A stretch of DNA of 64,000 bases from a virus (Duplodnaviria; Caudoviricetes): positions 1-64,000 of IMG/VR virus record IMGVR_UViG_3300033069_001711. The stretch is one strand, 5' to 3'. The notes below the pieces were generated by a model that was not told the DNA's origin, made no database searches, and saw nothing but the letters and a program-made list of their open reading frames with translations. The stretch's first letter is position 1, and the number at the start of each line of letters is the position of its first letter. Positions 28,463-57,856 of this stretch are shown here, in pieces. A program made the translations under genes and the position numbers.

Positions 28463-30466
28463 GTGCAACCGTTCGATTTTCAAAATAGTGTTTTCAGTGT
28501 TCCACCTAAAGCAAACATTCCAGCAGATGCAAAGGTCATCTTTGTTTCAGATATGTTCGTTGAAGATTACGTCGGAGGCGCTGAATTAACTTCAGAAGCC
28601 CTGATCAGATCTTGTCCAATCCAGGTTTTCAAGCTTCACTCTAGAGATGTCTCTATGAAGTTGTTGGAAGATGGCGTTGATCGATTTTGGATTTTTGGCA
28701 ATTTCGCTGAATTAAATCCTCAGCTAATCCCCAGCATCGTTGCAAATTTGAAATACAGCATCGTTGAATACGATTACAAATTTTGCAAAGCTAGATCACC
28801 TGAAAAACACCTTGAAGTTTTGGGTGTGCCTTGTGATTGTCCTAATCAAGCCAACGGAAAGATCGTTAGTGCATTTTTCTACGGATCAATGGGCTTGTGG
28901 TGGATGAGTGAAAAACAAAAGGAACGTTATTTGACAACGTTCCCATTTCTCGCCGAAAAAGACAACATCGTCCTATCCAGCGTTTTCGATCGTGAAACTT
29001 TGGCAACTATTGGCTGTCTGAGGGCAGTTTCGCCCAAACCAGAAGATCGCAAAAAATGGATTGTTCTCGGTTCTCAATCGTGGATTAAAGGCCTGGATGC
29101 GGCCGAATCATGGTGCAAAACGAACAACAAGGATTACGAAGTAGTTTGGAACCTTTCATACGACAAGGTCCTTGAGAAATTGGCTTCTGCAGAAGGTTTC
29201 GTTTACCTCCCTAAAGGCGGTGATACATGTCCACGCATGGTCATAGAAGCAAAACTATTGGGTTGTCAACTGCAATTGAATGACAACGTCCAACACAGGG
29301 ATGAAGAATGGTTTGCTGGTGATGATATCGAATCAATCAATGAGTACCTCCTTACTGCGCCCAGTATTTTTTGGAAGGGCATCAAGAAGATGATGGATTA
29401 CAAACCCACCATTTCTGGTTACACCACTGCTTACAATGCAGTGGTGCAAGAATATCCATTCAAACAATGTATTCAGTCGATGTTGCAATTCTGTGATGAA
29501 GTTTGTGCAGTTGATGGAGGCAGCACAGATGGCACGTGGGAAGAACTTCGCAATCTTCAAGAAAGTCTTGTGCCTGCCGCGGAAAGTTTACTTTTATTTG
29601 ATTGTGATGAATCACGACTTCAATATTTCAATCAAAAATCTCGATTGAAACTCAAACAAGTCAAACGTGACTGGCGATCAAAACGTCATCCAGTATTCGA
29701 CGGCATGCAGAAAGCTGAAGCCCGTGCCATGTGCACCAAAGAATATTGTTGGCAGATGGACTCTGATGAAATTGTACATGAGGATGACGCTCCAAAAATT
29801 GCTGACTTGTGTCGCAACATTCCAAAAGGAATTGACATCGTTTCACTGCCCGTCATTGAATATTGGGGAGGGCCAGAAAAAGTTCGTCTAGACGTTCAGC
29901 CTTGGAAATGGAGGTTAAGTCGCAATTTGCCACACGTGACTCATGGAATTCCAGTGGAACTTCGCAGAACAGATGCTGATGGTCAATCTTACGCAGAGCC
30001 TGGCACTGACGGGTGTGACATGATTCACAAAGAGACTGGTGAACGCCTTCCTCATGTCAGCTTCTACACTCAAGAGGTCGAAAACGCTCGTCAAGTGGCG
30101 ATGTTAGGGAATGAACAGGCTCGTCTAGAATACGAAGCTTGGTTCAACAACGCAACATCTGCAATTCCAGGTGTCTTTCATTACAGTTGGTATGATCTTC
30201 CACGCAAAATCAAGCTTTATCGTGACTATTGGCAAAATCATTGGAATGCTCTTTGGGACAAAGATGTTTCTGACACCGCAGAGAACAACATGATGTTTGG
30301 TGTGCCTTGGAAAGATGTTACTGATGAAATGATTGAATCTCGTGCCGCTGAAATGAAAGCAAAGCTCGGGGGTTGGATTTGGCATCGCCCGTGGGACGGA
30401 AAGACTCGTACGTCTCACATTTCTTGTAAGCGCACTCAGCCCAAGGTGATGGAATGCAAAAAATGA
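28463..30466 (+). CDS. Two-domain glycosyltransferase (GT-B/GT4-like + GT2-like)
   Basis: DTCPRMVIEAKLLG (GT4-type E motif); GYTTAYN...VDGGSTDGT...QMDSDE (GT2 DxD). Confidence 0.75.
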   Translation: MQPFDFQNSVFSVPPKANIPADAKVIFVSDMFVEDYVGGAELTSEALIRSCPIQVFKLHSRDVSMKLLEDGVDRFWIFGNFAELNPQLIPSIVANLKYSIVEYDYKFCKARSPEKHLEVLGVPCDCPNQANGKIVSAFFYGSMGLWWMSEKQKERYLTTFPFLAEKDNIVLSSVFDRETLATIGCLRAVSPKPEDRKKWIVLGSQSWIKGLDAAESWCKTNNKDYEVVWNLSYDKVLEKLASAEGFVYLPKGGDTCPRMVIEAKLLGCQLQLNDNVQHRDEEWFAGDDIESINEYLLTAPSIFWKGIKKMMDYKPTISGYTTAYNAVVQEYPFKQCIQSMLQFCDEVCAVDGGSTDGTWEELRNLQESLVPAAESLLLFDCDESRLQYFNQKSRLKLKQVKRDWRSKRHPVFDGMQKAEARAMCTKEYCWQMDSDEIVHEDDAPKIADLCRNIPKGIDIVSLPVIEYWGGPEKVRLDVQPWKWRLSRNLPHVTHGIPVELRRTDADGQSYAEPGTDGCDMIHKETGERLPHVSFYTQEVENARQVAMLGNEQARLEYEAWFNNATSAIPGVFHYSWYDLPRKIKLYRDYWQNHWNALWDKDVSDTAENNMMFGVPWKDVTDEMIESRAAEMKAKLGGWIWHRPWDGKTRTSHISCKRTQPKVMECKK

Positions 30467-30795
30467 TGCGAGTTGTTGTGGAGTCACCTTATGCAGGCGA
30501 CATCGAAAAAAACATGAGGTACTTGAGGGCCTGTATGAGGGATTGTTTGCAACGGGGTGAAGCACCTTATGCATCTCATGCTTTGTACACTCAAGAAGGC
30601 GTACTTCGAGATGATGTACCAGAAGAACGTGAACTTGGCATTCTTGCTGGTTTCTCATGGCGAGAAGTCACAGAAAAAACCGTGGTATATACCGATCTTG
30701 GTTACAGCGGAGGAATGAAATACGGAATTGCTCATGCTGAAACAATTCTTCACCCAATTGAATACAGGCAACTTGGTGGAGAGTGGCAATCTTGA
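30463..30795 (+). CDS. Nucleoside 2-deoxyribosyltransferase-like fold protein (DUF4406-like)
   Basis: VVVESPYAGD...APYASH.LY...ERELG...GYSGGMKYGI; ATGA overlap with the GT stop. Confidence 0.55.
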   Translation: MMRVVVESPYAGDIEKNMRYLRACMRDCLQRGEAPYASHALYTQEGVLRDDVPEERELGILAGFSWREVTEKTVVYTDLGYSGGMKYGIAHAETILHPIEYRQLGGEWQS

Positions 30796-31007
30796 CAATC
30801 AAAGAATGCGTACTTAAAGTTCTTCAATCATCTGATCAACCTCTTACAGCTTGTGATTTGAAACGAAATATCGACAATTGTTCATCGTCTGTTAAGTTGT
30901 CGTCTCTTTCAAGTTTGTTGACTAAACTCACAAAAGATGGAACTGTCGAACGACACGATACATACGGCGTTAGAGGAGGTTATGGTTACTCCTTAAGGGA
31001 AAGATGA
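30783..31007 (+). CDS. Small winged-helix protein
   Basis: VLKVLQSSDQPLTACDL...SSLLTKLTKDGTVER. Confidence 0.5.
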   Translation: MAILTIKECVLKVLQSSDQPLTACDLKRNIDNCSSSVKLSSLSSLLTKLTKDGTVERHDTYGVRGGYGYSLRER

Positions 31008-31741
31008 TGAAGATAATCGGTATCAAACAGAAATTGCAAGAGATGGGCGTTGACTTAGACACCATCACGATGGGAGATTTTGATTACATTGGTGAATTCA
31101 CTGCCAAACGTGATCGAAAACCCAACGATCCAAATTACAAAAAGTACGGATCGTTTTATCGTTCAAACTATGAACGTGGCATTCTCATCTATTACCTTAT
31201 TCGTCAATACAATTTGACCTCATTTTTAGAAATTGGATTCGGCCGTGGGTATGCTACTTTTTGCGCCGCGCGAGCATTTTATGACGCTGGCGTGATTGGA
31301 AAGATCACCACAATCGATCCAGAGCTCAACGAAGCCTATGTCAAGGCTTTGAAGGCTGTTTTTCCTGAAGATTGGTTTCGAAACATTGAATTTGTCAAGG
31401 CACGGTCGCAGGATGCGTTACCTCAGATCAATCAATCGTACGACCTTGTTTACATCGATGGCGATCATTCATATGAAGGCACAAAACTTGATTGGGAGGG
31501 AACAAAAGACAAGTGGAACAAATTCCTACTTTTCGACGATTATCACCTTCCCAGTAAAGGAGATCCTGGCATTCAATGTAGTCAATTAATTGATGAAATT
31601 GATGATCCCACAAAGGAACTCATCATCATGGACCGTCGTATGTTCTTTGATGATCGACAATTTTCTGACGACAAAATTGACTATGGTCAAGTATTGCTCA
31701 GTAAAGGTGAAACAAAGGTAGCGCCTCGCGATGACTGGTGA
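31004..31741 (+). CDS. Class I SAM-dependent methyltransferase (Methyltransf_24-like)
   Basis: LEIGFGRGYAT; YDLVYIDGDHSYEG; LLFDDY. Confidence 0.8.
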   Translation: MMKIIGIKQKLQEMGVDLDTITMGDFDYIGEFTAKRDRKPNDPNYKKYGSFYRSNYERGILIYYLIRQYNLTSFLEIGFGRGYATFCAARAFYDAGVIGKITTIDPELNEAYVKALKAVFPEDWFRNIEFVKARSQDALPQINQSYDLVYIDGDHSYEGTKLDWEGTKDKWNKFLLFDDYHLPSKGDPGIQCSQLIDEIDDPTKELIIMDRRMFFDDRQFSDDKIDYGQVLLSKGETKVAPRDDW

Positions 31742-32111
31742 TGCAAAAGAAACATGCACTAAACCCCCATGGGGTTGGCGTTGTACTCGTGATGCCGGGC
31801 ATGAAGGTCCATGTGCTGCACATCGTGCTGATTCACGAGTGTCAGATACTCCCACTCACATAGCTTGTAAGTCGTACACTGAATACAAGCCTGAATTTGG
31901 GCTCTACAAAGAACAATCAGAAGCTGTCAATAAGTGGATGAAACAACATGACGCTGAACGTCACATCCAACCTGGACAAACGCATCGATTTTCCGGACCG
32001 GTGGGTGGAGCATACACCTATGAGTTTACCAGCACAAGTTTAGGAATGTGCATTCATGTTCGATGTACGTGTGGCGAGGAGATCGACGTAAGTGACTATG
32101 ACAACTGGTGA
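31731..32111 (+). CDS. Hypothetical Cys/His-rich phage protein
   Basis: CTRDAGHEGPCAAH; FTSTSLG..VRCTCGEEID. Confidence 0.55.
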   Translation: MTGDAKETCTKPPWGWRCTRDAGHEGPCAAHRADSRVSDTPTHIACKSYTEYKPEFGLYKEQSEAVNKWMKQHDAERHIQPGQTHRFSGPVGGAYTYEFTSTSLGMCIHVRCTCGEEIDVSDYDNW

Positions 32112-32847
32112 AAAACAAAATAGATTCGTTTTTGTCGCTCCGATGTTCAATGCAGCAAAGTACTTGCCTCAATTGCTGCATTCGATTTGTGGACAATCAT
32201 ACGATAACTGGAAACTGATTTTGATTGATGACGTTTCTGACGAAGAGAATCAGAAATTATCAGCACAGATCATTCTGCAATTCCAGTGTTTGATGAACGG
32301 TCGTTACTCCGACAAAATTCATGAAGTTTGGAACAAAGAAAAGAAGTGGGAAGTTGCCAATGTTCTTCATGGAATTTCAATGTGTGATGATGATGACATC
32401 GTCTGTCGTATTGATGCAGATGACTGGTTGACTGAAATCGACGGTCTCAAAATTTTGAACTCGCTCTATAATGCAACCGCCGCTGACTGTTTGTGGACGG
32501 CACATCGCTGGGGATTCTCTGACAAGAACATCAGTGGACCCATGTCACCGGATGCCGATCCTTACAAGCACCCCTGGGTCTCCAGTCATTTGAAAACGTT
32601 TCGAAAACGACTCATTAATGATGTACCTGACATTAACTTCCGAGGCGAAGATGGCGAATACATCAAGAGAGCCGGCGATCAAGCTGTATACTTGCCAGTT
32701 CTTCACAATGCTACTCGAAGAGGATTTTTGCCTCGCGTGATGTATCATTACACAATCAATGACACGCCAGAAACGTATCAGACGCCGGATGCAATGTTTC
32801 AACGAGACGAAGCTTTATTTCTTCGTGCAAGAGGGTACGTAAAGTGA
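32092..32847 (+). CDS. GT2-family glycosyltransferase
   Basis: VAPMFNA...LIDDVSD...RIDADD. Confidence 0.85.
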   Translation: MTMTTGEKQNRFVFVAPMFNAAKYLPQLLHSICGQSYDNWKLILIDDVSDEENQKLSAQIILQFQCLMNGRYSDKIHEVWNKEKKWEVANVLHGISMCDDDDIVCRIDADDWLTEIDGLKILNSLYNATAADCLWTAHRWGFSDKNISGPMSPDADPYKHPWVSSHLKTFRKRLINDVPDINFRGEDGEYIKRAGDQAVYLPVLHNATRRGFLPRVMYHYTINDTPETYQTPDAMFQRDEALFLRARGYVK

Positions 32848-33080: not shown

Positions 33081-33084
33081 CAAC

Positions 33085-33831: not shown

Positions 33832-33866
33832 TGCAAAGGTTGGTCAATTAGTGATATGATGAGACT

Positions 33867-34799
33867 ATGAAAGTCTACGTCAATCGTTCTCCTGTTTCTG
33901 GACCTTGGGGCGGGGGAAATTTGTTTATTAAAGCTTTCCACGAATTTTCTTCTCGTAAAGGAATTGAACTTCTGGCGGGATCTCAGACCATCAACATGGT
34001 GCCAGATGTCATGCTTCTCGTGGGTCTAGAAAATCAAAGTCCTGCTGAAATTAGCGTTGAGCAAGCTATCATGTACAAAGCGTACATGAAACCTGATTGC
34101 AAACTTGTATTACGCGTCAATGAAAATGATGCTCGCAAGGGAACCAATCATATGGACTCAATGTTGTTGAAGATGTCAGAACACATCGATGCCACTGTTT
34201 TTGTGTCTAAGTGGTTACAGGACTACTTCAATGAAAAAGGTTGGGCGTGTAAAAATCAAACTGTCATCTACAATGGTGTTGACAGGGGAATCTTTCAATG
34301 TCAACCAAAACTCGACAATGGCAAACTCAATATTGTCGCTCATCATTGGAGTGATAATCGTATGAAGGGCGCAGATATTTATGAAAAGCTTGATGAGTTC
34401 GTTGGAGTTAACTCTGACAAATTCACGTTCACATATATTGGCCGTCACCAGTGCAACTTCAAGCACACACAGGTCATTCAGCCACTTAGTGGAAAGAGCC
34501 TAGGCAAAGAATTAGGCAAATATGATCTATATGTTTCTGCCTCACGGTGGGATCCTGGGCCTAATCATGTTCTCGAAGCGTTAGCATGTGATATGCCGAC
34601 ATGGGTTCACAAAGATGGCGGGGGAGCTGTAGAATTTGCAGGCTACGCTCATGCATATGGTGACTGGGAACAACTCAAAGACATCCTAGAATCTCCTCCT
34701 TACCATGGAAATGTCCAATCTCGCACCCTTCTAACATGGCAAACGTGCGTCGATGAGTATAATGCATTTTTAGAGGCAACATGGAAGGCAAACACATAA
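33867..34799 (+). CDS. GT4/GT-B glycosyltransferase
   Basis: IYNGVD; SRWDPGPNHVLEALAC. Confidence 0.75.
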   Translation: MKVYVNRSPVSGPWGGGNLFIKAFHEFSSRKGIELLAGSQTINMVPDVMLLVGLENQSPAEISVEQAIMYKAYMKPDCKLVLRVNENDARKGTNHMDSMLLKMSEHIDATVFVSKWLQDYFNEKGWACKNQTVIYNGVDRGIFQCQPKLDNGKLNIVAHHWSDNRMKGADIYEKLDEFVGVNSDKFTFTYIGRHQCNFKHTQVIQPLSGKSLGKELGKYDLYVSASRWDPGPNHVLEALACDMPTWVHKDGGGAVEFAGYAHAYGDWEQLKDILESPPYHGNVQSRTLLTWQTCVDEYNAFLEATWKANT

Positions 34800-35170
34800 G
34801 ATTCACTCAATTGTTGGAGACGCATTTAAACTCCGCTATTCAAAAAGAGTTCAATGGTCGTTCAGAATTGACAACCAACGTTCTTAGAGAGGTTAGAGAC
34901 ACTCTCAAAGAAAAAATCACATCTGTTTTTACACGCAGTCAAAAACATAAACTTACACATGACTCAATTGGTTGGTTGACTAATCAGTATTTCAAGTCAA
35001 TCAAGGTCGCTGATGATGTTCATGTCTCTGATTTAGTCGTGATCAACGAATATAACCTGTCCGATCTGCCATACCATGACATTGAAATGCTGCATAATCT
35101 CTATTCAGATTCTAAAGCTCCATGGGTGACGGAACTTCGGGAAGAATTCAAGAAAAGGATGACATCATGA
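34781..35170 (+). CDS. Hypothetical protein (129 aa)
   Basis: Coupled ORF. Confidence 0.55.
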   Translation: MEGKHIRFTQLLETHLNSAIQKEFNGRSELTTNVLREVRDTLKEKITSVFTRSQKHKLTHDSIGWLTNQYFKSIKVADDVHVSDLVVINEYNLSDLPYHDIEMLHNLYSDSKAPWVTELREEFKKRMTS

Positions 35171-35541
35171 AATTGAAACCCGGAGCATTTCACGAGACAA
35201 TCAGTAAATTGTTGAACGCTAAGCTACAGCCGTTGGTAACGGCGGAGCGTGATTTGAATTTGGTTGCATGTACCGAGATCTATACAACCATTTTTGAAAC
35301 CCTGGTAGAGTGCATCAGCGAAGTAGAAATGCCTATCACTAACGAAGGAATGAACTACCTTGCTCAACAGTACTATGATGGTGTTCTTGTCAATGGAAAA
35401 CAGGAACTAGATCCAGAAATTTTTACCAATCGTGCTAAAGTCGAAAACATCGAAACCAAAGAACTAGCGTTGCTTGCGGTTATGTTGAATGGCACTGATT
35501 TTGCAAAACCTATTCTGTACGAGATTAAACGTCGTGCCTAA
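35167..35541 (+). CDS. Hypothetical protein
   Basis: ATGA overlap at 35167 indicates the true start (track start 35122). Confidence 0.55.
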   Translation: MKLKPGAFHETISKLLNAKLQPLVTAERDLNLVACTEIYTTIFETLVECISEVEMPITNEGMNYLAQQYYDGVLVNGKQELDPEIFTNRAKVENIETKELALLAVMLNGTDFAKPILYEIKRRA

Positions 35542-36488
35542 TGCGTATACATTTTGATAATGTCAACTTGAACGCCGGCACTGGGCCAAATACCTTTGCC
35601 AATCGGTTGGCTCGACGATTATTTGAGTCAGGTCATGAGGTAGTTTTTAGCAATGAAAATGCAGATGTTTCTCTGGTTTTCATTGAACGCTCGGGCGCGC
35701 CTCTGGCTTCAAAAGTAGTCCAACGACTGGATGGAATTTGGTTTAAACCTGATGAATTTCACACCAAAAATTTCAACATTCAGTCATTATTTTACGACTG
35801 TGATGCTGTTGTTTTTCAGTCAGAGTTCGACAAGTCATTTATCAAATACTGGTGGGGGAAAGCTGACAATTACTGGAGGCCTGAGGTAGTGATTGGCAAC
35901 GGGATTGACTTAAGTCCCGTCAAGGAATTGACCATTCCAGCCTTGGTCGATCTCCGTGCTCAGTATGAACTGATGTACGTCTGCAGTTCAAATTGGCACC
36001 CTCAAAAGCGTCTAAGTGCCAATGTTGAACTCTTCCGACGTCTTCATGCTAAGAATCCTAACAGTTGTCTCTTAATTTTGGGTAACAATCCCGACGTTCG
36101 AATTGCAAATCCACACGTTTTTTACACAGGTCCAGTCGGTCCGGAGATTTACAATCAAATTTATTCAGCAGCCAATTGGATGTTACATCTGGCCTGGGCC
36201 GACCATTGTCCTAACGTAGTGGTTGAAGCCCTTGCTCAAGGCACGCCGGTTGTTTGTAGTGACGTGGGTGGTACCAAAGAATTAGTGGGTTCATATGGTG
36301 TGGTTCTAAAGGAACAAGCGTACAATTTTGAGTTGACTGATTATGATAACCCGCCACCGATTGACATCACACAAGTGTCAGAACTTCCTGATCGAAGTCA
36401 ATTAGATTACTCATCAATCGCCGACATTGACATCTCTTCTGTCGCAAAACGCTACATCAAGTTGTTCGAAGAGCTCGTCAGGCAGTAA
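35541..36488 (+). CDS. GT4/GT-B glycosyltransferase
   Basis: IGNGID; WHPQKR; DHCPNVVVEALAQGTPVVCSDVGGTKE. Confidence 0.85.
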   Translation: MRIHFDNVNLNAGTGPNTFANRLARRLFESGHEVVFSNENADVSLVFIERSGAPLASKVVQRLDGIWFKPDEFHTKNFNIQSLFYDCDAVVFQSEFDKSFIKYWWGKADNYWRPEVVIGNGIDLSPVKELTIPALVDLRAQYELMYVCSSNWHPQKRLSANVELFRRLHAKNPNSCLLILGNNPDVRIANPHVFYTGPVGPEIYNQIYSAANWMLHLAWADHCPNVVVEALAQGTPVVCSDVGGTKELVGSYGVVLKEQAYNFELTDYDNPPPIDITQVSELPDRSQLDYSSIADIDISSVAKRYIKLFEELVRQ

Positions 36489-36496: not shown

Positions 36497-37231
36497 GTGT
36501 ACGTTGTCTACGTTCATACCAATCTCAACAACACCAAACGTTACATTGGTTGGGCTGCCGTCGAAGAAGGTCAGTCATACTATGATGCTATGATGCGTCG
36601 GTGGAAGGATCATTGTTATGATTCCAAGATTGGGTCAAAACGCTTATTTCACAATGCTATCAGAAAACACGGCGATGTGAACTGGGAACATGAAGTCTTA
36701 GACGTGTTACGAACACTTGATGGTGTCAAACACGCTGAGATTTTGTGGATTACACAACGTCATTCATATGCATTTGATGAAGGTAATCTCGGTTATAACA
36801 TGACGAGAGGAGGTGATGGTGTTCATGGGTATGAACACACACTTGAATCACGTCAGAAGAATAGCTTGTCTCATAAAGGTTTAGTAAAGACAACAATTCA
36901 TCTTGAAAGGTTGCGTATTTCAAACACTGGGAAAAAGCGTTCCAAGATGACATGTGAGAACATTGGTGCTTCAAAACGCGGTGTCAAACATCCATTTTAC
37001 GGTAAGTGTTTAAACAAAGAAATATGCCTTGCAATTAGAGCAGGACAGCCCAATCGTCGATGTATCATGCAGTTCACAAAGAATAGTGAATTCATTGAAA
37101 TACATGCATCGATTGCTGATGCACAACGGAAAACAGGCACACCAGCAACGAACATTGTAAAATGTTGTCGAGGTCACCTAAAGACTGCAGGAAAGTTCGT
37201 ATGGCGTTACGTAGAACAGGAGAAAAAGTGA
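36497..37231 (+). mobile_element. Free-standing GIY-YIG homing endonuclease with NUMOD3/NUMOD1-like motifs
   Basis: VVYVHTN...RYIG; R..H; GYNMTRGGDG; HTLESRQKNSLSH; FIEIHASIADAQRKTG...IVKCCRG. Confidence 0.8.
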
Positions 37232-38217
37232 CGAAGAAAGCAGTGATCACAGGCGTGACTGGACAAGACGGATCGTACCTTGCTGATTTGCTATTAAGCA
37301 AAGGTTACGAGGTTCACGGGTTGGTGCGACAATCCACACAATTCACTCCAGATCGTTGGGGGTATTTACGTGATGCTATGCACAGCAGTCATTTTCATGT
37401 ACATCATGGCGACGTCGCAGACGCTACTGGTATTCGAACGTTGATCGAAGAGATACAACCAGACGAGGTTTACAACCTCGCAGCACAAAGCCATGTCGGC
37501 CAGTCGTTCGAACAACCAATTAACACTGTCAACGTGACGGCAATTGGCCCACTGAACATATTAGAGGCGATTAGACGCTCACATTTGAAGATACGCTTCT
37601 ATGAAGCCAGTTCATCTGAGATGTTTGGAAAAGTGCAAGAAACGCCCCAGCGTGAGTCAACACCTTTTCATCCACGCTCTCCATACGGGTGTGCCAAAGC
37701 TTTTGGTCATTACATCACACAGAACTATCGCGAAGCTTATGGAATCTTCGCTTGTAGCGGAATTCTCTTCAATCATGAGAGCGAACGCCGCGGCGAAAGC
37801 TTCGTCACGAGGAAGATAACACGGGCAGTAGGTCGTATCAAATATGGTCTTCAAAAAGAACTGTTGCTTGGGCCACTGGATATGAAACGTGACTGGGGCT
37901 ATGCCCCCGATTACGTTGAAGCTATGTGGATGATGTTGCAACAAGAAGAAGCTCGCGATTACGTCGTCGGAACGGGCGAACATCACACCGTGCAAGAATT
38001 CGTCGACACTGCTTTTGAATACGCGGGTTTGAAAGCATCTGACTATGTCAAGCTTGATCCCAAACTTGTTCGACCGTCTGAAGTTAACACTTTGCGCGCG
38101 GATCCGACACTAGCACATCAGGTATTAGGTTGGCAACCTAAAGTAGACTTCCACGGCTTAGTGAAGCGAATGGTTGATCATGATGTTGCTCTCGCAGTTA
38201 AGGAGAGAATTGATTGA
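37228..38217 (+). CDS. gmd: GDP-mannose 4,6-dehydratase
   Basis: ITGVTGQDGSYLA; YNLAAQSHV; ASSSEMFG; PRSPYGCAK; FNHESERRGESFVTRKIT; KRDWGYA. GTG start with AGGAG SD. Confidence 0.95.
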   Translation: MTKKAVITGVTGQDGSYLADLLLSKGYEVHGLVRQSTQFTPDRWGYLRDAMHSSHFHVHHGDVADATGIRTLIEEIQPDEVYNLAAQSHVGQSFEQPINTVNVTAIGPLNILEAIRRSHLKIRFYEASSSEMFGKVQETPQRESTPFHPRSPYGCAKAFGHYITQNYREAYGIFACSGILFNHESERRGESFVTRKITRAVGRIKYGLQKELLLGPLDMKRDWGYAPDYVEAMWMMLQQEEARDYVVGTGEHHTVQEFVDTAFEYAGLKASDYVKLDPKLVRPSEVNTLRADPTLAHQVLGWQPKVDFHGLVKRMVDHDVALAVKERID

Positions 38218-39149
38218 AAAAAGTCTTTGTTCTAGCGCCTGGTGAGAATTGGATTGTCGATCGATTTGTGAAAGAATGGAACGACGATAATTGTGATATC
38301 GCTGTAAATCGCCCAGAACAGGCTGACGTCATTTGGTTAATGGCGGATTGGTGCTGGCAGCAAGTTCCTCGCAACATTCTCTTTGACAAGAAGGTGTTGG
38401 TTACGGTGCATCACATCGTACCAGAGAAATTTGGCCCACGTGAACGAATGGAATTTGAATATCGTGATCAAATTGTCACTGCGTATCATGTACCTAACAA
38501 ACATACCGAAGCTTTCATCAAACCTCTGACACAAAAACCAATTCACGTTATCAACTACTGGGCCAATCAAAAGATTTGGCGGCGAACTCATGTTGATCAT
38601 AAAGTCGCAGAGCTTTGGGAAAAATACAAGCTTCCTCGAGGAATGGGAGCTGAATCTCCCACATATTTCATTGGATCTTTTCAACGTGATACCGAAGGTC
38701 ATGATCTGATTAGTCCGAAACTCGAAAAAGGTCCGGACTTGTTGGCTGACGCAATCATTGCTTTTAGAGATCGATGTAAACAGCATTTTCCATTAGAGGT
38801 TGTCCTGGCAGGGTGGCGACGACAATACTTGATGAAGCGTCTAGAGGCTGCAAATATACGGTACCACTACTTCGAGAAACCTTCACAGGAAACCATCAAT
38901 GACCTGTACCAGGTCCTTAATCTTTATCCTGTGACAGCACGACAAGAAGGTGGTCCACAATCACTGATCGAGTGTGGTCTCATAGGAGTTCCTGTGGTTT
39001 CACGTGACATTGGCGTCGCGAGTATGGTTCTATCGACCGGTGCCATCAATGATGATGTTTCAATGGCACGTCCTGAGATTCCAAATGTCGAACACCTGAA
39101 GCTCCCTATGGGTTACGAACCATATCGAAGATTGATTGAATCACTGTGA
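38214..39149 (+). CDS. GT-B-like glycosyltransferase
   Basis: EKGPDLL; ARQEGGPQSLIECGLIGVPVVSRDIG. Confidence 0.7.
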   Translation: MKKVFVLAPGENWIVDRFVKEWNDDNCDIAVNRPEQADVIWLMADWCWQQVPRNILFDKKVLVTVHHIVPEKFGPRERMEFEYRDQIVTAYHVPNKHTEAFIKPLTQKPIHVINYWANQKIWRRTHVDHKVAELWEKYKLPRGMGAESPTYFIGSFQRDTEGHDLISPKLEKGPDLLADAIIAFRDRCKQHFPLEVVLAGWRRQYLMKRLEAANIRYHYFEKPSQETINDLYQVLNLYPVTARQEGGPQSLIECGLIGVPVVSRDIGVASMVLSTGAINDDVSMARPEIPNVEHLKLPMGYEPYRRLIESL

Positions 39150-39961
39150 AAGAACCTGCAATTCTCCTGGTCACATGTTGTCTCGAACAATCACGTTACG
39201 AGTTGGTAAAACAAGTCTTTGACAACATCAAGACGCAATGTCCTCCAGACTGGAAGTCGAGAATTACTGTTTTTGACAACGCTTCGACTTTCTTGAGTTC
39301 AGAAGAAATTCTGAATACAGTCGACAATGTTTATCGATGTGATCGCAATGTAGGCTATTGGACAGCAATCGATTGGTGGCTTGAAAGTTTGAAATCTGAT
39401 CCACCAGTGTATACGTACGTTATTGAATCTGACATGATGCACTATGGCGCTTATCATCTTGATGAGTGCGTTAAATTCCTAGATCGTCACCCAAATTTAG
39501 GTGGCATGCGATTGCATGAATACTCAGTTGAAAATTTTCATCTCTACAACAAAGATGAACCTCGACCTGACTCTAAGCGAAATCTTTGGCAATCACACAC
39601 AAATAAAGTGACCGGTCAAAGCATTAATCTTCAACGTGTTGAAGGCAGTTTTTGGTCAACAAATTTTTTAACACAGCTGCCTGCGCTCAATCGCTATCAA
39701 GCGCTGAAGACAGTTTTCAATCAGTTGCATGATCGCGGACAGTTCACTGAACTAGATTTTCAACACGCATACCACGACATGTATCCTAACATTGCAATCC
39801 ATGACGGTGGCATTTTTAATTGCGATCTGAATCCGTATGGTACGCCTGGCATCACGGGATCATGGACAAGTGCGCAAGATCTACAAAAGATCGGATATCA
39901 AAGCACTCGATTTGCCACGATCGTTCCACGTGACCAGTACATGGTTACTCGCTTAGTTTAA
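39146..39961 (+). CDS. GT-A (GT2-like) glycosyltransferase
   Basis: VFDNAST; RNVGYWTA; VIESD. Confidence 0.6.
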   Translation: MKEPAILLVTCCLEQSRYELVKQVFDNIKTQCPPDWKSRITVFDNASTFLSSEEILNTVDNVYRCDRNVGYWTAIDWWLESLKSDPPVYTYVIESDMMHYGAYHLDECVKFLDRHPNLGGMRLHEYSVENFHLYNKDEPRPDSKRNLWQSHTNKVTGQSINLQRVEGSFWSTNFLTQLPALNRYQALKTVFNQLHDRGQFTELDFQHAYHDMYPNIAIHDGGIFNCDLNPYGTPGITGSWTSAQDLQKIGYQSTRFATIVPRDQYMVTRLV

Positions 39962-46460: not shown

Positions 46461-47441
46461 ATGAAATCAATTGCAGTGATCGGACAAGGTTTTGTGGGTG
46501 GTTCGCTCACTACTGTCTTTGCAGAACGTGGGTTTGACGTCTATACGTACGACAAGGCTGGCAAACAAGCACCAGGAGCGAAACATTCACACGAAGTGAC
46601 TGTTCATTCTGAAGGACTCACGTCATATGATCTCTTACCTGCTTCATCTGTTGAAGATTTAGTTGCCTCATGTGAAGCACTCAAGACATTTTCTGGTGTT
46701 TACTTCGTTTGTCTTCCAACTCCAATGTTTGAAGACGGCGAGGCTGATTTGTCGATTGTAGAGGGCGTTCTAGAACAATTAAGCAAATTACCCGGTAACC
46801 GAATTGCAGTTGTCAAATCAACTGTCCCGCCCGGTACGACAGAACGTTGGAATAAGACGTTTGATAACACCGGACTTCGAGTTGTCTTCAATCCAGAATT
46901 TCTGACAGAAGCAAATGCTCTGGATGATATGCGCAATCAGAATCGCATCATTTTGGGAGGTCCTCGACCATGGATCAACACTGTCAAGCTAGTTTTTCAA
47001 TCTGCATTTCCAAAGGTTCCGCTTGTCAAAACGTCTTCAACAACTGCGGAAATGGTAAAGTACACCATTAATTGTTTTCTCGCAACCAAAGTCTCTTTCG
47101 CTAATGAAATGGCACAGATTTGTGAAGCACTTGACAACAAGGGTCTAAACATTGACTATGATAAAGTTGTTGAATACGCCAAGCTCGACACTCGACTAGG
47201 AAACAGTCATTGGGCCGTGCCAGGACCAGTGCCAGCTCATGATGGTCGTTACGTTCGCGGATTTGGCGGTCATTGTTTTCCAAAAGACTTGAATGCTCTA
47301 ACTTTCATTGCTGAATCTTTAGGCATTGATCCAAAAGTTTTGAAAGGTGTTTGGGCTAAAAATCTAGAAGTTCGTAGTCCTGATGATCGAGATTGGGAAC
47401 ACATGAAAGATCGTGCTGTTAGCAAGAGAAAATTAAATTGA
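46461..47441 (+). CDS. UDP-glucose/GDP-mannose 6-dehydrogenase family
   Basis: GQGFVG; VCLPTP; KSTVPPGTT; NPEFLTE; AEMVKY..N; GFGGHCFPKD. Confidence 0.9.
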   Translation: MKSIAVIGQGFVGGSLTTVFAERGFDVYTYDKAGKQAPGAKHSHEVTVHSEGLTSYDLLPASSVEDLVASCEALKTFSGVYFVCLPTPMFEDGEADLSIVEGVLEQLSKLPGNRIAVVKSTVPPGTTERWNKTFDNTGLRVVFNPEFLTEANALDDMRNQNRIILGGPRPWINTVKLVFQSAFPKVPLVKTSSTTAEMVKYTINCFLATKVSFANEMAQICEALDNKGLNIDYDKVVEYAKLDTRLGNSHWAVPGPVPAHDGRYVRGFGGHCFPKDLNALTFIAESLGIDPKVLKGVWAKNLEVRSPDDRDWEHMKDRAVSKRKLN

Positions 47442-51920: not shown

Positions 51921-51932
51921 CTTAAGATTCAT

Positions 51933-52006: not shown

Positions 52007-52016
52007 CAATAGAAAT

Positions 52017-52235: not shown

Positions 52236-52255
52236 TAAAGCCATAAGATCTGCAA

Positions 52256-53119
52256 ATGTCAGATCGGAAGCAGATTGAAGAACAACACCTTAAAGGCCAA
52301 GCAGATCTCGTAGAAAAACCAAAATACGAAAACTTGCCTACAGGAAAACCTCATGTCTCTTTTTCAGAGATGGGTGACTGGAATAGTTGTTCGTATCGAC
52401 ATAAACTAAAATACGTTGCCAAAATTGATCTAGGGAAACCTGGTCCTCTTATGGATTTTGGAACAGCGGTTCATGCTTCTTGCGAGGATTTTCTTAGAAC
52501 TCGTGTGATGAAACCTGAAATTGCCGAAGCGATGATTCGGAAAGTTTGGGAAAAGAACAAAGAGATTCAAGGATTTGAACCTAGTTCAGTCGAGCGTTAC
52601 ATCAAAGAAGCTCAAGAAATTTTAGCTGACGTTCCTGCTTGGGTTGATGAAACTTTTCCTGAATGGGAATTTGTTGATGCAGAACATTACCTTTATGAGC
52701 AAATTGGTGATAAACCACATGCTTTCAAGGGATTTATCGACGGTATCATCAAGTGCAAAGGCCCTCGCAACAAGACTCTAATCTGGTTGCTCGACTGGAA
52801 GACTACGGGATGGGGTTGGACTTCAGAAAAGAAGGGCGATCCAAATGTCACAGCCCAACTTGTTCTTTACAAGAACTTTTGGTCGATCAAGACTGGCACT
52901 GATCCTAAAGACATCAGGTGTGGATTCATCTTGTTGAAACGCAGCGCCAAAAAAGACAAACACTGTGAATTAGTGACGACTTCAGTGGGTGAAGTGACTA
53001 CAGCAAGATCACTCAAGGTCATCAATAACATGCTGGCTAGCGTGAAAAAAGGTATTGCGATCAAAAACAGAGCCAACTGTACGTGGTGTGATTATTACAA
53101 CACTCCACATTGCACTTGA
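52256..53119 (+). CDS. PD-(D/E)XK exonuclease (Cas4/RecB-like, phage type)
   Basis: HVSFS...CSYRH; GTAVH; GFIDG; DWKT; QLVLY; C-terminal CTWCDY..HC Fe-S-type cysteines. Confidence 0.8.
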   Translation: MSDRKQIEEQHLKGQADLVEKPKYENLPTGKPHVSFSEMGDWNSCSYRHKLKYVAKIDLGKPGPLMDFGTAVHASCEDFLRTRVMKPEIAEAMIRKVWEKNKEIQGFEPSSVERYIKEAQEILADVPAWVDETFPEWEFVDAEHYLYEQIGDKPHAFKGFIDGIIKCKGPRNKTLIWLLDWKTTGWGWTSEKKGDPNVTAQLVLYKNFWSIKTGTDPKDIRCGFILLKRSAKKDKHCELVTTSVGEVTTARSLKVINNMLASVKKGIAIKNRANCTWCDYYNTPHCT

Positions 53120-53134
53120 TCGCTACCTAATAAC

Positions 53135-53857
53135 ATGACATCACCCCAGTTTTTGATCTGTACGATGTGGTGTGGCGAGTTGGATTATCCTCATCATATT
53201 GAATCACTTGTCAATCAACCCGGGGTAATCATAGAACATCGTGTTTTTAAAGACATGGTCGAAGTGGATGGTCACAACGCAGTTTATCAGGCGTTCAACG
53301 CGGCGCCACCCGACGTAATTCGTGCTAAAATTGATGCTGATGTTGTCTTACACACAAATGTGCTGGCATCTATCGCTCAAATGGTTCATGCCAACACATG
53401 GTTGGACCCTCAGACCCACGATTACTTCACAGATAATGCATTGTTTGCCGGGGTAGCATTCTATGGCCCCACAGTGCGATTTAAACATCAGTCACTGACG
53501 TTGAAATGTGACCGCAACGTGGCTCAATACGGTGATCATAAAACAATGGGAGTGATCGGTACTCATGCTCATCACGCTGATGAATGGACAGGATTTCGTT
53601 ATGGTTTTCACAGAGGACTAAAGAGTCAATTACCTGTGTTTGACATGATGAGTGCGGCGCACCGTAAAAATCAGGACGTTGTTAGGTTAGCTGCCATTCG
53701 TGGATTTGAATTAGCCCAAAGCGACATGTATATTGACTATCACGTCAAAGGCTCTGAGCCCCCGATGGATCACAATTACAGCAATCCAAAATTGCGTGAA
53801 CTGTACGATCTTTATCACGTTCAAGAGAAAAAGATCCCATCTAGAACTTGGCGTTAA
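53135..53857 (+). CDS. Putative GT-A-like transferase, paralogue of 42699..43427
   Basis: AKIDADVVL; HDYFTD; CDRNV; FRYGFHRGLK. Confidence 0.5.
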   Translation: MTSPQFLICTMWCGELDYPHHIESLVNQPGVIIEHRVFKDMVEVDGHNAVYQAFNAAPPDVIRAKIDADVVLHTNVLASIAQMVHANTWLDPQTHDYFTDNALFAGVAFYGPTVRFKHQSLTLKCDRNVAQYGDHKTMGVIGTHAHHADEWTGFRYGFHRGLKSQLPVFDMMSAAHRKNQDVVRLAAIRGFELAQSDMYIDYHVKGSEPPMDHNYSNPKLRELYDLYHVQEKKIPSRTWR

Positions 53858-53864
53858 TTACGTC

Positions 53865-54440: not shown

Positions 54441-54443
54441 AGA

Positions 54444-54451
54444 TTAAATAG
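54444..54451 (-). promoter_or_regulatory. Candidate late promoter CTATTTAA
   Basis: Only 3 nt upstream of the annotated GTG of the lone minus-strand methyltransferase. Confidence 0.35.
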
Positions 54452-54501
54452 GCCAGGAACACCGCCGCAGTTACAACTGATGTCCGCCTGAGTTCCTACA
54501 C

Positions 54502-54529
54502 TTTACAGATTCAACGAACGGATTACCAT
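54502..54529 (+). promoter_or_regulatory. Candidate sigma-70-like promoter TTTACA-N16-TACCAT
   Basis: 9 nt upstream of the endonuclease ATG. Confidence 0.35.
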
Positions 54530-54538
54530 CTAAATCAG

Positions 54539-55459
54539 ATGTTCGTTCGTGTCTGTGAATGTTGCAAACAAACCTTTGAAGCTAAAGTCGCTAACAAGCG
54601 ATTCTGCAAACCAGAATGTTTTGCACAGCATCGCAAAGCTTACGGCATCAAAAATATCGAATCACGTAAAGTGGAACGCGTCTGTCGCCAATGTCGAAAG
54701 GCCTACAGACGCGTCTATGCAAAATCAGGGTTCTGTTCCATTTCTTGCGGTTCTAAATGGAACATGGAACATGGTGTGTTTGATGCATGGAAAACATCAC
54801 AATTAGGCAAACGCTCAGGCAAATACGTTCCGTGCAATGAATGTAGCAAGGCGCTCTACACGGTAGAACATCAATTCAAACAAGAATTGCATTTCTGCGA
54901 TCGAAAATGTAAGGGACGTTACGACTCCAAGCAATACGCCGGCGTTGGCAATCCGATGTTTGGACGCATGCTTAGCGATCGGTCACTAGAAAAACAAAAA
55001 CGTACGCTGCTACAAAATCACGGTGTGACAAATGCTTTTTTCTTGAGCAAGCATCGGACGATATCGAAAGCGCAACGGGAAATTCTCGATCACCTATCAA
55101 GTAGTCTACCATCTGCAGCATTTGAGGGTGAAAAGCTGTTCCATAGTGGAACTCACAAGTACTTCATCGATATCTTCAGCGAAAAAGCAAAGATGGTCAT
55201 CGAGTACAATGGTGATTATTGGCATTGCAATCCATCCCAATTTAGCGGTTCTTTTTTTCATCCTAGAAAACATAAACATGCAGAACAAATTTGGGCTGAA
55301 GATGCAGAACGAATGAGAGTGATGCAACAAAAAGGTTACCACACCGTCACAGTGTGGGAGAGTGAGTACTGTTCTGACAAACAGAATGTGCTTGATAAGT
55401 TGATAGAAACCGCGAAACAGTTGTCAAACAAGGTGAAAAAAGGTAGCGCAAGTGGTTGA
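54539..55459 (+). mobile_element. Putative homing endonuclease: Zn-finger repeats + Vsr/DUF559-like nuclease
   Basis: Three CxxC...C(S)xxC units; NPMFGR; YFIDIF...IEYNGDYWH...VTVWE. Confidence 0.7.
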
Positions 55460-56696
55460 AAAGAAAAAGATTTTGATGTTAAGTGATCACCCGTTATCTA
55501 CGTCAGGTGTCGGTACACAAGCGCGTTGGTTAGCACAAGGATTGATCAATACGGGCAAGTGGACGTTTAGATGTTTTGGCGGTGCTGTACGTCACGAAAA
55601 CTATGACACAGTCAAAGTCAACGATGACATGATCATTAAGCCAACTAATGGATTTGGTGACAAAAATCTGTTGAGATTGACGTTAGCGGCAGAAAAGCCT
55701 GACGTTCTTTTATTGTTCACAGATCCTAGATTTTTTCTGTGGGCGTGGGAGATGGAAGATGAAATTCATCAGGTTTGTCCGATTGCATACAACCACTTAT
55801 GGGACAATCCCCCGTGGCCAGAGTTCAATCGAATTCTATATGAATCAACAGATTTAGTGAACTGCATCAACTACCCAACTTATGATATGGTTCATCAACG
55901 TTTTCCTGAGAAGACGAATTACATTCCACATGCGGTGCCGAACAACATCTTTTTTCCGCTACCAGAAGATGACAAGGTACGTTTGAAAAACATGATCTTA
56001 GGAAAGGATCGAGCAGATCACTTCACGGTCTTGTTTGTTAGCAGGAACGCTAGGCGAAAGATGCCTAGCGACGTCATCATCTCCTTTAAACAATTTCTAG
56101 TCGAGCTAGAGAAAAAACATGGTCACCGTAAAGCAACGTTGGTGATGCACACCGACCCGCTCGATCCAGAGGGTCCCAATTTGCACCATGTCATTGACAT
56201 GCTTCATCTCAAAGAACATGTTGTTTTTTCAAAGGATCGCATTGGATTTCCGGAAATGAACTCCCTTTACAATATTTGCGACACCATCGTTAATCGATCT
56301 TGTAATGAAGGATTTGGTCTTCCTACGTTGGAGATGATGATGTGTGCAAAGCCTATCATTGCACTCAAAACAGGCGGCTTGACTCGACAAGTCGAAGACT
56401 TTGAAACAAAGGAGCAATATGGAATTGCTCTAGAGCCCGAAGTTAGATCGATGGTTGGTAACCAAATGGTTCCGTACATCTATGAAGATTTTGTTTCACA
56501 TGAAACAGTGGCAAAAGCATTCATGAAAATGTTTGAAGAAGGTCCTGATGGGCGAGCAAAATTAGGTGCTAAAGCCCGAGCGCATGCCATCAAAGATTAC
56601 AGTGTTGACAAAATGATTTCAGAATGGGATCGAACTCTTACTGATCTGACCAATACGTGGAAAAATGACAATCGTTGGGAGGCGATTGAAATCTGA
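55452..56696 (+). CDS. GT4 glycosyltransferase
   Basis: LSDHPLSTSGVG; IPHAV; RNARRK; NEGFGLPTLEMMMC. Confidence 0.85.
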   Translation: MVEKKKILMLSDHPLSTSGVGTQARWLAQGLINTGKWTFRCFGGAVRHENYDTVKVNDDMIIKPTNGFGDKNLLRLTLAAEKPDVLLLFTDPRFFLWAWEMEDEIHQVCPIAYNHLWDNPPWPEFNRILYESTDLVNCINYPTYDMVHQRFPEKTNYIPHAVPNNIFFPLPEDDKVRLKNMILGKDRADHFTVLFVSRNARRKMPSDVIISFKQFLVELEKKHGHRKATLVMHTDPLDPEGPNLHHVIDMLHLKEHVVFSKDRIGFPEMNSLYNICDTIVNRSCNEGFGLPTLEMMMCAKPIIALKTGGLTRQVEDFETKEQYGIALEPEVRSMVGNQMVPYIYEDFVSHETVAKAFMKMFEEGPDGRAKLGAKARAHAIKDYSVDKMISEWDRTLTDLTNTWKNDNRWEAIEI

Positions 56697-57856
56697 TGAA
56701 AACAGTTCTCTTTCGAAGCCCTGTATTGACACAATCTGGGTATGGTGTTCATGCTCGCCAAATTGCTCGATGGTTGCTCAAACGACCTGATTTTGATGTG
56801 AAATTTGCTACATTGAACTGGGGCGATACGCCGTGGTTCATCAATGGTGAATCTCATGATGGATTTGTTGGCGAAGTTATGAAAAGATCTGTCAAGCCTG
56901 ATTTCAAGGCTGACATTTCATTTCAATTGCAACTTCCCAACGAATGGGATCCTAGTGTTGCACCCATCAACATCGGCATCACGGCAGGGGTTGAAACCGA
57001 TCGATGCAACCCAGATTGGGTGACCGCATGCAATCAAATGACAGCCGTGGTAGTTCCTTCACAGCACACTAAGTCTGTTCTTACAAGCTCAGGCAACGTA
57101 CTTAAACCATTGTTCGTCATTCCTGAAGCGTACTGCGATTCAATTAGGAATCAAGAATTACCGACACTTCCTACATTTTCCACACCTTTCAACTTCTTGT
57201 TGTTTGGACAATTGACGGGAAATAATGCAGAAAGCGACAGAAAGAACATTTTTTACTCAATCAAGTGGCTGACTGAGGTTTTCAAAAATGATCCTGACGT
57301 AGGAATCGTCATCAAGACAAATGCTGGCAGGTGTAGCAAACTTGACAGAATGATGACCAAAAATTTGTTGACTAACGTTGTCAATGAAGCCCGACGTGAC
57401 GGAAAAGGACCAAAACTTCACTTGCTTCACGGTGACATGTCAGAGCCTGAAGTTGCATCCCTCTATAAACACCCACAAATCAAAGCCTTAGTTGCCTTAA
57501 CGCGTGGAGAAGGTTACGGTTTACCGATTCTCGAAGCTGCAGCCTCAGGTTTACCGGTAGTGGCCACTGACTGGTCTGGGCATTTAGACTTTCTAAACTT
57601 GGGCAAATTCATCAGTGTCTATTACCAACTCACCGACGTCCATCCGTCCAGGATTGATGGAAAGATCTTCATGCCTGGTGCACGATGGGCAAATCCATCA
57701 GAGTCAGATTTCAAAAAACGAATTATGAAATTCAGACAAAGTCACACCATTCCTGGTGAGTGGGCTTCAGAATTGAAAAACGTAATTCTTGAAAAATACA
57801 GTCTCGATAACGTGTCGAAAATGTATGATGAAATTCTCAAGGAGTTCATCGGATGA
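56696..57856 (+). CDS. GT4 glycosyltransferase
   Basis: SGYGVHAR; DRKN; RGEGYGLPILEAAASGLPVVATDWSGHLDF. Confidence 0.85.
   Translation: MKTVLFRSPVLTQSGYGVHARQIARWLLKRPDFDVKFATLNWGDTPWFINGESHDGFVGEVMKRSVKPDFKADISFQLQLPNEWDPSVAPINIGITAGVETDRCNPDWVTACNQMTAVVVPSQHTKSVLTSSGNVLKPLFVIPEAYCDSIRNQELPTLPTFSTPFNFLLFGQLTGNNAESDRKNIFYSIKWLTEVFKNDPDVGIVIKTNAGRCSKLDRMMTKNLLTNVVNEARRDGKGPKLHLLHGDMSEPEVASLYKHPQIKALVALTRGEGYGLPILEAAASGLPVVATDWSGHLDFLNLGKFISVYYQLTDVHPSRIDGKIFMPGARWANPSESDFKKRIMKFRQSHTIPGEWASELKNVILEKYSLDNVSKMYDEILKEFIG

Follow-up and report, generated by a model that had tools for sequence, protein, structure and literature searches.

Multigene glycosyltransferase (GT) islands have been described in several groups of aquatic T4-like phages. 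The cyanomyophage S-SCSM2R carries an island of 22 genes that include 13 GTs (PMC12801897), and similar islands were reported for P-SSM2 (PMC7824862), for the host-recognition cluster of pelagimyophages (PMC7029224), and as the core GTs of moraphages (PMC12619734). In big aquatic phages, few unexplained gene sets are larger than these islands, and they are routinely labelled as lipopolysaccharide or cell-wall genes without test. Here we analysed a cluster of this kind in an uncultured jumbo myovirus, located at positions 28463-57856 of a 64,000-nucleotide stretch of 43% GC (positions 1 to 64,000 of the IMG/VR record IMGVR_UViG_3300033069_001711; hereafter, the window, with its genes named by their start positions). 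An earlier note made from the letters of this DNA alone (the sequence-only reading) had taken the span for an autonomous glycosylation system and the strongest candidate for an undescribed one. The enzyme families found, together with the lack of any detected lipid-carrier genes, supported its proposal of a soluble phage-encoded pathway that makes and joins nucleotide sugars. The product of this assembly line is most likely placed in the cytoplasm on an acceptor owned by the phage, namely virion proteins (capsid and/or tail), a reading that we hold tentatively and at a little below an even chance.

That the system is undescribed was not supported, since comparable multi-GT islands are present in cyanomyophages, pelagimyophages and moraphages and are also annotated in phages immuto and Mel-JY01. 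The locus shared with the aquatic T4-like islands (P-SSM2, S-SCSM1, S-SCSM2R, pelagimyophages and moraphages) a large myovirus genome with a gp23-type capsid, at least ten GTs of several families, accompanying NDP-sugar dehydratases, epimerases, aminotransferases and methyltransferases, a position among or next to structural genes, and a varying gene content. All the characteristics of such an island were found here: GT2 together with GT4/GT-B enzymes in nine supported and two possible genes, sugar enzymes, a large myovirus, and a core with variable content. On the other hand, the 667-aa GT, its partner of about 120 aa, and the GT2 encoded at 32092 gave no tblastn match among the deposited phages, the cluster embedded a small gene derived from the major capsid protein (MCP), and the lineage encoded a separate hydroxymethylase/GT-B module. 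The locus is particular in its lineage-specific core without counterpart in deposited phages, its capsid-derived gene, the separate hydroxymethylase/GT-B module, and its link to cultured phages.

All open reading frames of 28463-60902 were scanned against Pfam, with a cut-off of 23.3 bits for PF00535, and NCBIfam and PHROGs were used as well (Table 1). The plus-strand block 28463-47441 was tightly packed, and some 7 kb of intervening genes separated it from a pair of GT4 genes (55452-57856). The earlier count of about 11 GT genes held firmly for six of them (seven domains); three more were probable (33867, 44796 and 39146) and two possible (42699 and 53135). In the family of 39146, the FDNxS and ESD motifs were invariant, and a PDB profile search gave nothing significant (chondroitin synthase at E 0.24). 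The KIDAD motif of the paralogues 42699 and 53135 aligned with the DxD motif of GT2 in an hhalign comparison at E 0.017 and a probability of 2.7%. There was no Pfam match in seven members of this family, and a PDB profile search with it returned nothing significant. A separate hhalign comparison of alignment A1 with GT2 lent no support.

The proposed two-domain nature of the 28463 product was borne out by an AlphaFold model (pLDDT 90.5), in which a GT-B/GT4-like domain (residues 21-313) was followed by a GT2-type GT-A domain (about 315-470) and a C-terminal domain. The first domain matched 6kih (VIA Z 20.3, root-mean-square deviation 3.3, 276 residues aligned), followed by BshA, HepE and PglA. 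Foldseek matched the GT-A part to the SunS/ThuS S-glycosyltransferases (3e-9), K4CP (3.4e-8), the exostosins EXT1/2, TarS and RmlT, and WaaG, LARGE1 and Gtf3/GtfC were also among the fold neighbours of the enzyme. The constant neighbour of this gene was 35122, and in loci L014, L015 and L031 it directly followed the 667-aa gene with no other cluster gene in common. Complex prediction for the two proteins scored 0.50 against 0.00 for the best control, with full (100%) agreement of contacts between runs and a partner pLDDT of at least 77; 58 of 80 solved complexes attained the mark used, as against 2 of 110 mismatches, and scores of 0.60 or below comprised only seven of the 80 and both mismatches. 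A complex between the two proteins is therefore a modelled lead only, and the 35122 product is a possible subunit, adaptor or acceptor. Its family had no family or fold match, a PDB sequence-profile search gave nothing significant, and an Atlas search was uninformative. The DUF7768 protein encoded at 30454 was 66-81% identical in 10-11 relatives and had no sequence match in PDB.

Family matches were also found for each of the proposed gmd, PseB-like, DegT, GNAT, formyltransferase and dehydrogenase genes. The gmd gene was present in 11-13 of 38 related loci and absent from the complete relative G002, and the DegT/PseC-like protein was 32% identical to an aminotransferase of immuto. The formyltransferase matched PRK07579, dTDP-4-amino-4,6-dideoxyglucose formyltransferase, over residues 41-229 (1.2e-9), and from its context we read it as a sugar N-formyltransferase. 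Its assignment as DpdN was rejected, as it had no tblastn match to immuto (which has DpdN) and PF01702 (DpdA/TGT) was absent in five large relatives. The deacetylase-like gene at 43418 was present as described, and its identity as a deacetylase rested on weak leads (E 0.084); one Atlas cluster, in which 11% of the members carried PF01522, scored 0.96, and no relatives were found among the loci fetched. The dehydrogenase encoded at 46461 lacked the C-terminal UDP-binding domain PF03720. This truncated form was kept at 65-76% identity in G002 and locus L059, and G002 carried a second, full-length copy upstream. The methyltransferase encoded at 31004 had 23 relatives with a median identity of 66%.

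Based on their sequences, these enzymes would convert UDP-GlcNAc through a 4-keto-6-deoxy intermediate and a 4-amino sugar to an N-acetyl or N-formyl form, and GDP-mannose to a 4-keto-6-deoxy sugar; they might also yield a uronic acid. A pseudaminic acid pathway was rejected, as the PseB-, PseC- and PseH-like proteins all scored below the equivalog cut-offs. Moreover, there was no NeuB-type synthase or CMP-transferase among the open reading frames scanned, which also argued against that pathway.

The sequence-only reading had seen no obvious multi-transmembrane (TM) protein in the span, and a Kyte-Doolittle scan of the cluster likewise found none. Nor did Wzx, Wzy, WecA or WbaP occur in the window. 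The sequence-only reading had also named export genes elsewhere in the genome as the sign that the glycan goes to the host surface. At the sequence level, none were found in five large relatives, one of them complete: PF00953, PF02397, PF01943 and PF04932 were not found with positive controls working, GtrA and ABC-2 not being searched, and the host's own machinery could still be used. In G002, a hydropathy scan identified six proteins with at least three TM-like segments, namely a 138-aa EamA protein, a fatty-acid-hydroxylase-like protein, the homologue of 60906, a 399-aa protein without Pfam match, a 124-aa protein, and a 1249-aa protein with weak segments. None of the six resembled a protein of the Wzx/Wzy type. 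The locus differed from undecaprenol-based serotype conversion and O-antigen export (Gtr, Wzx/Wzy, WecA/WbaP) in that the families searched for membrane priming, flippase and polymerase were not found in the window or the five large relatives.

No near match to the window was detected in the phage collection or in IMG/VR. However, the 667-aa protein had 38 relatives in IMG/VR (50-73% identity) on contigs of up to 369 kb, and it was found in 37 of the 38 loci. In the protein collection, it matched 2,545 clusters at E<=1e-5, and all of the 120 matches listed were full-length and at least 62% identical. The lineage is thus an abundant one. Its complete representative, G002, was a genome of 369,475 bp with terminal repeats and 56% GC, and its region 284.7-347.5 kb was collinear with the whole window. 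Membership in the T4 superfamily was indicated by the Gp23 MCP of G002 (PF07068, 5.9e-78) and by Baseplate_J/gp6-like and gp55-like genes in the window. The closest kin by MCP and helicase were Mel-JY01 (Microcystis), immuto (Flavobacterium), RM378 (Rhodothermus), uncultured megaphages, XacN1 and RsoM2USA. In G002, the cluster lay downstream of the MCP gene and was followed by late-sigma-like and baseplate genes; of these two flanks, the window displayed the downstream one only.

The GC content of the 38 relative loci ranged from 0.33 to 0.64, and the identity of the core genes across them was 40-75%, on par with the helicase. The conserved core was composed of the 667-aa GT, its partner of about 120 aa, the GT2 at 32092, the GT4-type genes 33867, 35541 and 38214, and the methyltransferase. 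The sugar-tailoring genes were patchy in a presence/absence matrix, and unrelated genes occupied the same cluster slot in L014 and L059. Additionally, three genes of the window were missing at these positions in relatives: a zincin-like HExxH gene (33046-33831), a NUMOD3-type gene (36497-37231), and a DUF559/MTES_1575-type endonuclease-like gene (54539-55459). Such insertions point to mobile-element traffic in the island.

The span as a whole was not one system. The region 47741-54538 contained genes without a glycan-pathway domain: NadM-Nudix (47741), macro-like, PTH2, tRNA-binding, DUF3307 and HD hydrolase genes, a PD-(D/E)XK nuclease, a weak methyltransferase match, and a DUF559-type endonuclease. 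Beyond it, the GT4 pair 55452/56696 had a distribution different from that of the 28463-47441 block. Orthologues of 55452 were found in immuto (34% identity), Mel-JY01, RM378 and the uncultured LR756508, and the identity between 56696 and its counterpart, the second GT in the clusters of immuto and Mel-JY01, was 30-33%. Both cultured phages kept the order nuclease-GT4-GT4 at 28-38% identity, with genes for a GT2/GT-A-type enzyme and a methyltransferase coming next, and their MCPs were related as well; immuto also had an aminotransferase, an acetyltransferase-like gene and an epimerase in its cluster. In contrast to the window, the clusters of these two phages were smaller (about 11 kb) and contiguous and lacked the 667-aa enzyme, gmd and the formyltransferase. 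According to liquid chromatography-mass spectrometry, immuto DNA contains only dA, dC, dT and fdPreQ1, with no glycosylated base (bioRxiv 10.1101/2023.04.13.536721). Since its dC is canonical, the GT4 module does not serve cytosine glycosylation in immuto. This phage also differed from our lineage in its fdPreQ1 DNA and in having no hydroxymethylase homologue among the matches listed. In XacN1, which is distantly related by helicase and MCP, two GTs are encoded, and at least two proteins of the virion are glycoproteins (PMC5852040).

We infer the sugars made, the order of the steps and the acceptor as follows. The accessory enzymes would turn host UDP-GlcNAc, GDP-mannose and UDP-glucose into N-acetyl or N-formyl 4-amino-4,6-dideoxy sugars and a 6-deoxy-4-keto-mannose derivative; a uronic acid might be made as well. 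The lineage core (the 667-aa GT with its partner of about 120 aa, one GT2, three to four GT4-type enzymes, and the methyltransferase) would make a conserved methylated core oligosaccharide, to which the variable GTs would then append a strain-specific outer part. The GT4 pair may represent an older, separately inherited module of like kind that is common to cultured phages. An acceptor owned by the phage is favoured since the core was kept over relatives of 33-64% GC, in which host glycans would differ. Moreover, at least six conserved GT domains and a methyltransferase suggest a glycan longer than any known on DNA, with a trisaccharide as the known upper limit there (PMC13326640; 10.1101/2023.12.21.572611). 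The location of the cluster among virion genes, the embedded capsid paralogue and the DNA composition of immuto also favour a phage protein as the acceptor.

There are precedents for phage-encoded virion glycosylation. Mycobacteriophage virions are glycosylated (Freeman et al. 2023, as cited in PMC12619734), and, in the account given there, phage GTs act in the cytoplasm on the capsid and tail-tube proteins of the phage itself. That system differs from the window in its two to four unrelated GTs, the small siphoviruses that carry it, and the lack of sugar-nucleotide synthesis genes.

Among giant viruses of eukaryotes, the N-glycans of chlorovirus Vp54 and the fibril glycans of Mimivirus are made autonomously. 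These viruses also use soluble multi-domain GTs, 4-amino-4,6-dideoxy and 6-deoxy sugars, N-acylation and O-methylation, and their glycans combine a core with variable decoration. However, there was no sequence relationship, the host here is a bacterium, and the window is known from its genes alone; the analogy is thus one of working principle. A review of autonomous glycosylation in such viruses is available (PMC9614988).

The embedded capsid paralogue reported earlier was real: the 232-aa product of 45753 was 49% identical over 116 aa to the MCP of G002. A 232-aa homologue with 33% identity and a shared C-terminal VLDMNII was found in L058 and L059, whose copies were nearly identical to each other; it occupied the same place in the cluster, with the 38214-type GT on one side and the dehydrogenase on the other. 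This conserved position indicates a maintained gene rather than debris. The protein keeps an invariant WSRAPGKF...GTVREWYETLIET block with a variable loop inside it. In the MCPs of relatives (e.g., L065:6001-6609), this variable loop was 10-11 residues long and was flanked by the invariant motifs NKxTG and GPxFTGTVREWYETL. The Ser/Thr fraction of this capsid loop was about twofold raised (0.29 vs 0.14), in a sample too small to count as evidence.

A second candidate glycosylation module was found outside the cluster. Four of the five large relatives (G001-G004) encoded a T4 gp42-like dCMP hydroxymethylase (E 3.5e-74 to PDB 1b49), and there was none in the window. Its RSND..ND motif retains Asp169 and has Asp in place of Asn177, and therefore, by published criteria for these residues (PMC13326640), 5-hydroxymethylcytosine (5hmC) rather than 5-hydroxycytosine (5hoC) is predicted. 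In G002, about 130 kb separated this gene from the cluster; an SDR epimerase was its neighbour, and a dCMP deaminase was encoded nearby. A 454-aa protein was encoded 1.4-4.3 kb from the hydroxymethylase in G001-G004, with the epimerase between them in G002. It could not be named by sequence and had no Pfam match; its model (pLDDT 92.6) had a GT-B fold, with Foldseek matches to sucrose-phosphate synthase (4.9e-12) and TM-scores of up to 0.73 to BshA/MshA. The T4 AGT and BGT families (PF11440 and PF09198) were not seen in the five relatives, in a search where the control genomes gave no positive either. Because its layout matches that of known DNA glycosylation clusters, the hydroxymethylase-epimerase-GT-B trio is a candidate DNA-glycosylation unit, and on the modelled fold it would be a simpler and likelier one than the window cluster. 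Thus, DNA glycosylation can be accounted for without the latter.

Several observations weigh against a virion acceptor and belong to other explanations. The modelled folds of the 667-aa enzyme would suit peptide and protein GTs (SunS, Gtf3/GtfC) as well as polysaccharide and teichoic-acid GTs (K4CP, EXT, TarS), so that the fold does not identify the acceptor, and the 232-aa gene could be a remnant or have another role. Since relatives encode the T4-like hydroxymethylase, the DNA of the lineage is probably modified and offers an acceptor for GTs. Some or all cluster GTs could therefore extend a glycan on 5hmC, with the variable cassette diversifying it against modification-dependent restriction. 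Consistent with this, every cluster enzyme was soluble, no T4-type AGT or BGT was seen in the search whose control genomes gave no positive either, known DNA glycosyltransferases look GT4-type (PMC13326640), and the cluster adjoined DNA-metabolism genes (helicase, PhoH, PD-(D/E)XK nuclease). Furthermore, the known DNA glycan clusters (T4 alpha/beta-GT, RB69/DLP3 arabinosyl-5hoC, RL38J1, MT/5mYOX-GT) combine soluble GT4-like enzymes with sugar-nucleotide genes, and the lineage of the window encodes a hydroxymethylase of the thymidylate-synthase family. However, those clusters place one to three GTs beside the base-modifying enzyme (PMC13326640; 10.1101/2023.12.21.572611), a layout found here at the distant hydroxymethylase locus with its own GT-B and not at the window cluster. 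The number of conserved GT domains also surpasses any known DNA glycan, large glycans on about a fifth of the bases would presumably burden packaging, and the orthologous GT4 pair resides in immuto with its canonical dC. We consider DNA an unlikely target of the cluster.

The host envelope is the acceptor favoured by the literature on cyanomyophage and pelagimyophage islands (PMC7824862, PMC7029224, PMC12801897), and soluble GTs acting on undecaprenyl-linked intermediates could let the host export an altered O-antigen or capsule, for instance as a block to superinfection. GT2, GT4, gmd, PseB/C-like and formyltransferase genes are families of O-antigen loci, and WaaG, PglA, TarS, RmlT and K4CP were among the fold neighbours. 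Most O-antigen GTs are peripheral, and absence of TM segments is normal for O-antigen and teichoic-acid GTs; thus, the soluble character of the cluster leaves room for host lipid-linked acceptors that the host would prime and export. In addition, a small EamA/DMT protein (138-146 aa) was encoded in two of the five large relatives (G002 158325-158741 and G001 294449-294853). Flippase subunits for Und-P-sugars occur among EamA/DMT proteins of such size, and this one could be an ArnE/F-like flippase. Nevertheless, the core GTs were kept over 33-64% GC and the GT4 pair over phages of three bacterial phyla, in which lipid-linked acceptors should differ; priming transferase, flippase, polymerase and ligase were not found in the five relative records; and the envelope role has no experimental support in any phage with such an island. 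In our view, this makes envelope remodelling improbable. It is also conceivable that at least two unrelated modules with different acceptors were combined, or that the product is not part of the virion, being for instance a glycoconjugate that is soluble or secreted, or a phage protein that is glycosylated but not structural. Points in favour are the roughly 7 kb of unrelated genes that break the span, the deviating evolutionary distribution of the GT4 pair, the two-domain layout of the 667-aa enzyme, as in the bifunctional polymerases K4CP, EXT1/2 and LARGE1, and the sugar dehydrogenase. Yet a free polymer or metabolite had no positive evidence on its side, an export system was not found, and the tight operon 33867-47441 suggests one pathway, so that we rate these options as distinctly unlikely.

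Within the reading preferred here, glycosylation of the virion, a more specific version can be formulated. The jumbo lineage might glycosylate its own MCP with a methylated core and strain-variable N-acyl amino-sugar caps, all produced by soluble enzymes of the phage, using the 232-aa protein as an acceptor mimic, primer or adaptor that presents the Ser/Thr-rich loop to the 667-aa GT and its partner of about 120 aa. We regard this version as a long shot.

Outside the cluster, the large minus-strand proteins at 3168-19031 had no Pfam or PHROG family in scans of both collections and were presumed to be structural. The protein encoded at 60906-61832 had no family match; for a Wzx or Wzy protein, both its size and its number of TM segments are too low. 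The divergent intergenic region 28253-28462, located before the cluster, contained repeated TCTAGATCT-type palindromes (ctctagatctctctctagagaatctagatctc), a possible operator or promoter element. One copy of the T4 late promoter TATAAATA was present against 0.9 expected, a scan for sigma-70 promoters and terminators was at or near shuffle level, and no intergenic k-mer except ACAATTGT was enriched.

Table 1. Features of the window and of the hydroxymethylase module in its relatives
Feature	Position	Strand	Evidence and remarks
Seven large proteins, 335-1386 aa	3168-19031	minus	conserved in G002
667-aa bifunctional GT; lineage signature core gene	28463..30466	+	PF00535 29.8 bits
DUF7768 protein	30454..30795	+	PF24963 100.8 bits; translationally coupled to 667-aa GT
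SAM-dependent methyltransferase, O-methyltransferase-like, core	31004..31741	+	Methyltransf_24 57.3 bits, Methyltransf_3 25.5 bits
Small conserved protein	31731..32111	+	9-10 relatives, 31-52% identity; no family
GT2, core	32092..32847	+	PF00535 55 bits; 32 relatives, median 65% identity
Probable GT-B, core	33867..34799	+	PF00534 22.7 bits and PF13439, both under cut-off; 27 relatives
Helical protein of about 120-139 aa, constant neighbour of 667-aa GT	35122..35541	+	35-36 relatives
GT4, core	35541..36488	+	PF13692 51.2 bits, PF00534 44.2 bits; 31 relatives
GDP-mannose 4,6-dehydratase (gmd), accessory	37162..38217	+	TIGR01472 446.2 bits (above 415); PF16363 432.6 bits
GT4, core	38214..39149	+	PF13692 30.5 bits, PF00534 28.9 bits; 23 relatives
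Probable divergent GT2 (GT-A)	39146..39961	+	no match of its own; 4 of 12 orthologues match PF00535, best 2.9e-4
UDP-HexNAc 4,6-dehydratase, PseB/FnlA/Polysacc_synt_2 type	39970..41016	+	PF02719 267 bits; TIGR03589 251.7 (below 407.75)
DegT/PseC-like sugar 4-aminotransferase	41018..42160	+	PF01041 283.5 bits; TIGR03588 242.5 (below 423.5)
GNAT N-acetyltransferase, PseH-like	42157..42702	+	PF13302 59.5 bits; TIGR03585 67.6 (below 93.1)
Possible GT-A, paralogue of 53135	42699..43427	+	phrog_4447 glycosyltransferase 8.5e-4
Window-specific protein, weak polysaccharide-deacetylase lead	43418..44110	+	PDB 7y51 deacetylase
Formyltransferase, window-specific	44107..44799	+	PF00551 41.2 bits
Probable GT-B-type GT	44796..45719	+	PF13524 22.5 bits (below cut-off of 25); 43% identical G002 orthologue
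232-aa MCP-derived protein, spine-helix remnant and next conserved block	45753..46451	+	matches G002 MCP residues 452-567
NDP-sugar dehydrogenase	46461..47441	+	TIGR03026 201.6 (above 189.8); PF03721 and PF00984 present
PD-(D/E)XK nuclease, synteny anchor ahead of GT4 pair	52256..53119	+	PF12705 59.5 bits
Possible GT-A, paralogue of 42699	53135..53857	+	29% identity to 42699; no family match
GT4, first of pair	55452..56696	+	PF00534 45.4 bits; 74.5% identical in G002
GT4, second of pair	56696..57856	+	PF00534 34.1 bits
308-aa protein, about four C-terminal TM-like segments	60906-61832		between unknown late genes and baseplate gene; conserved in G002
Hydroxymethylase/454-aa module	G002 = L048:1786-5493; G001 63.6-67.9 kb; G003 224.7-227.9 kb; G004 136.3-142.6 kb		

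The presence of a separate and better-placed candidate for DNA glycosylation means that the two functions can be distinguished in this lineage. Moreover, since the GT4 pair and a downstream cluster are present in the cultured phages immuto and Mel-JY01, the target of the glycan is testable, and for immuto the composition of the DNA has been determined. Confirmed virion glycosylation would have consequences for how phages are recognised by grazers, host defences and immune systems, and the cluster would be a source of new soluble GTs for unusual amino sugars. If the MCP itself proved to be the acceptor, its glycosylation would be the counterpart in a bacterial virus of the capsid glycosylation of chloroviruses.

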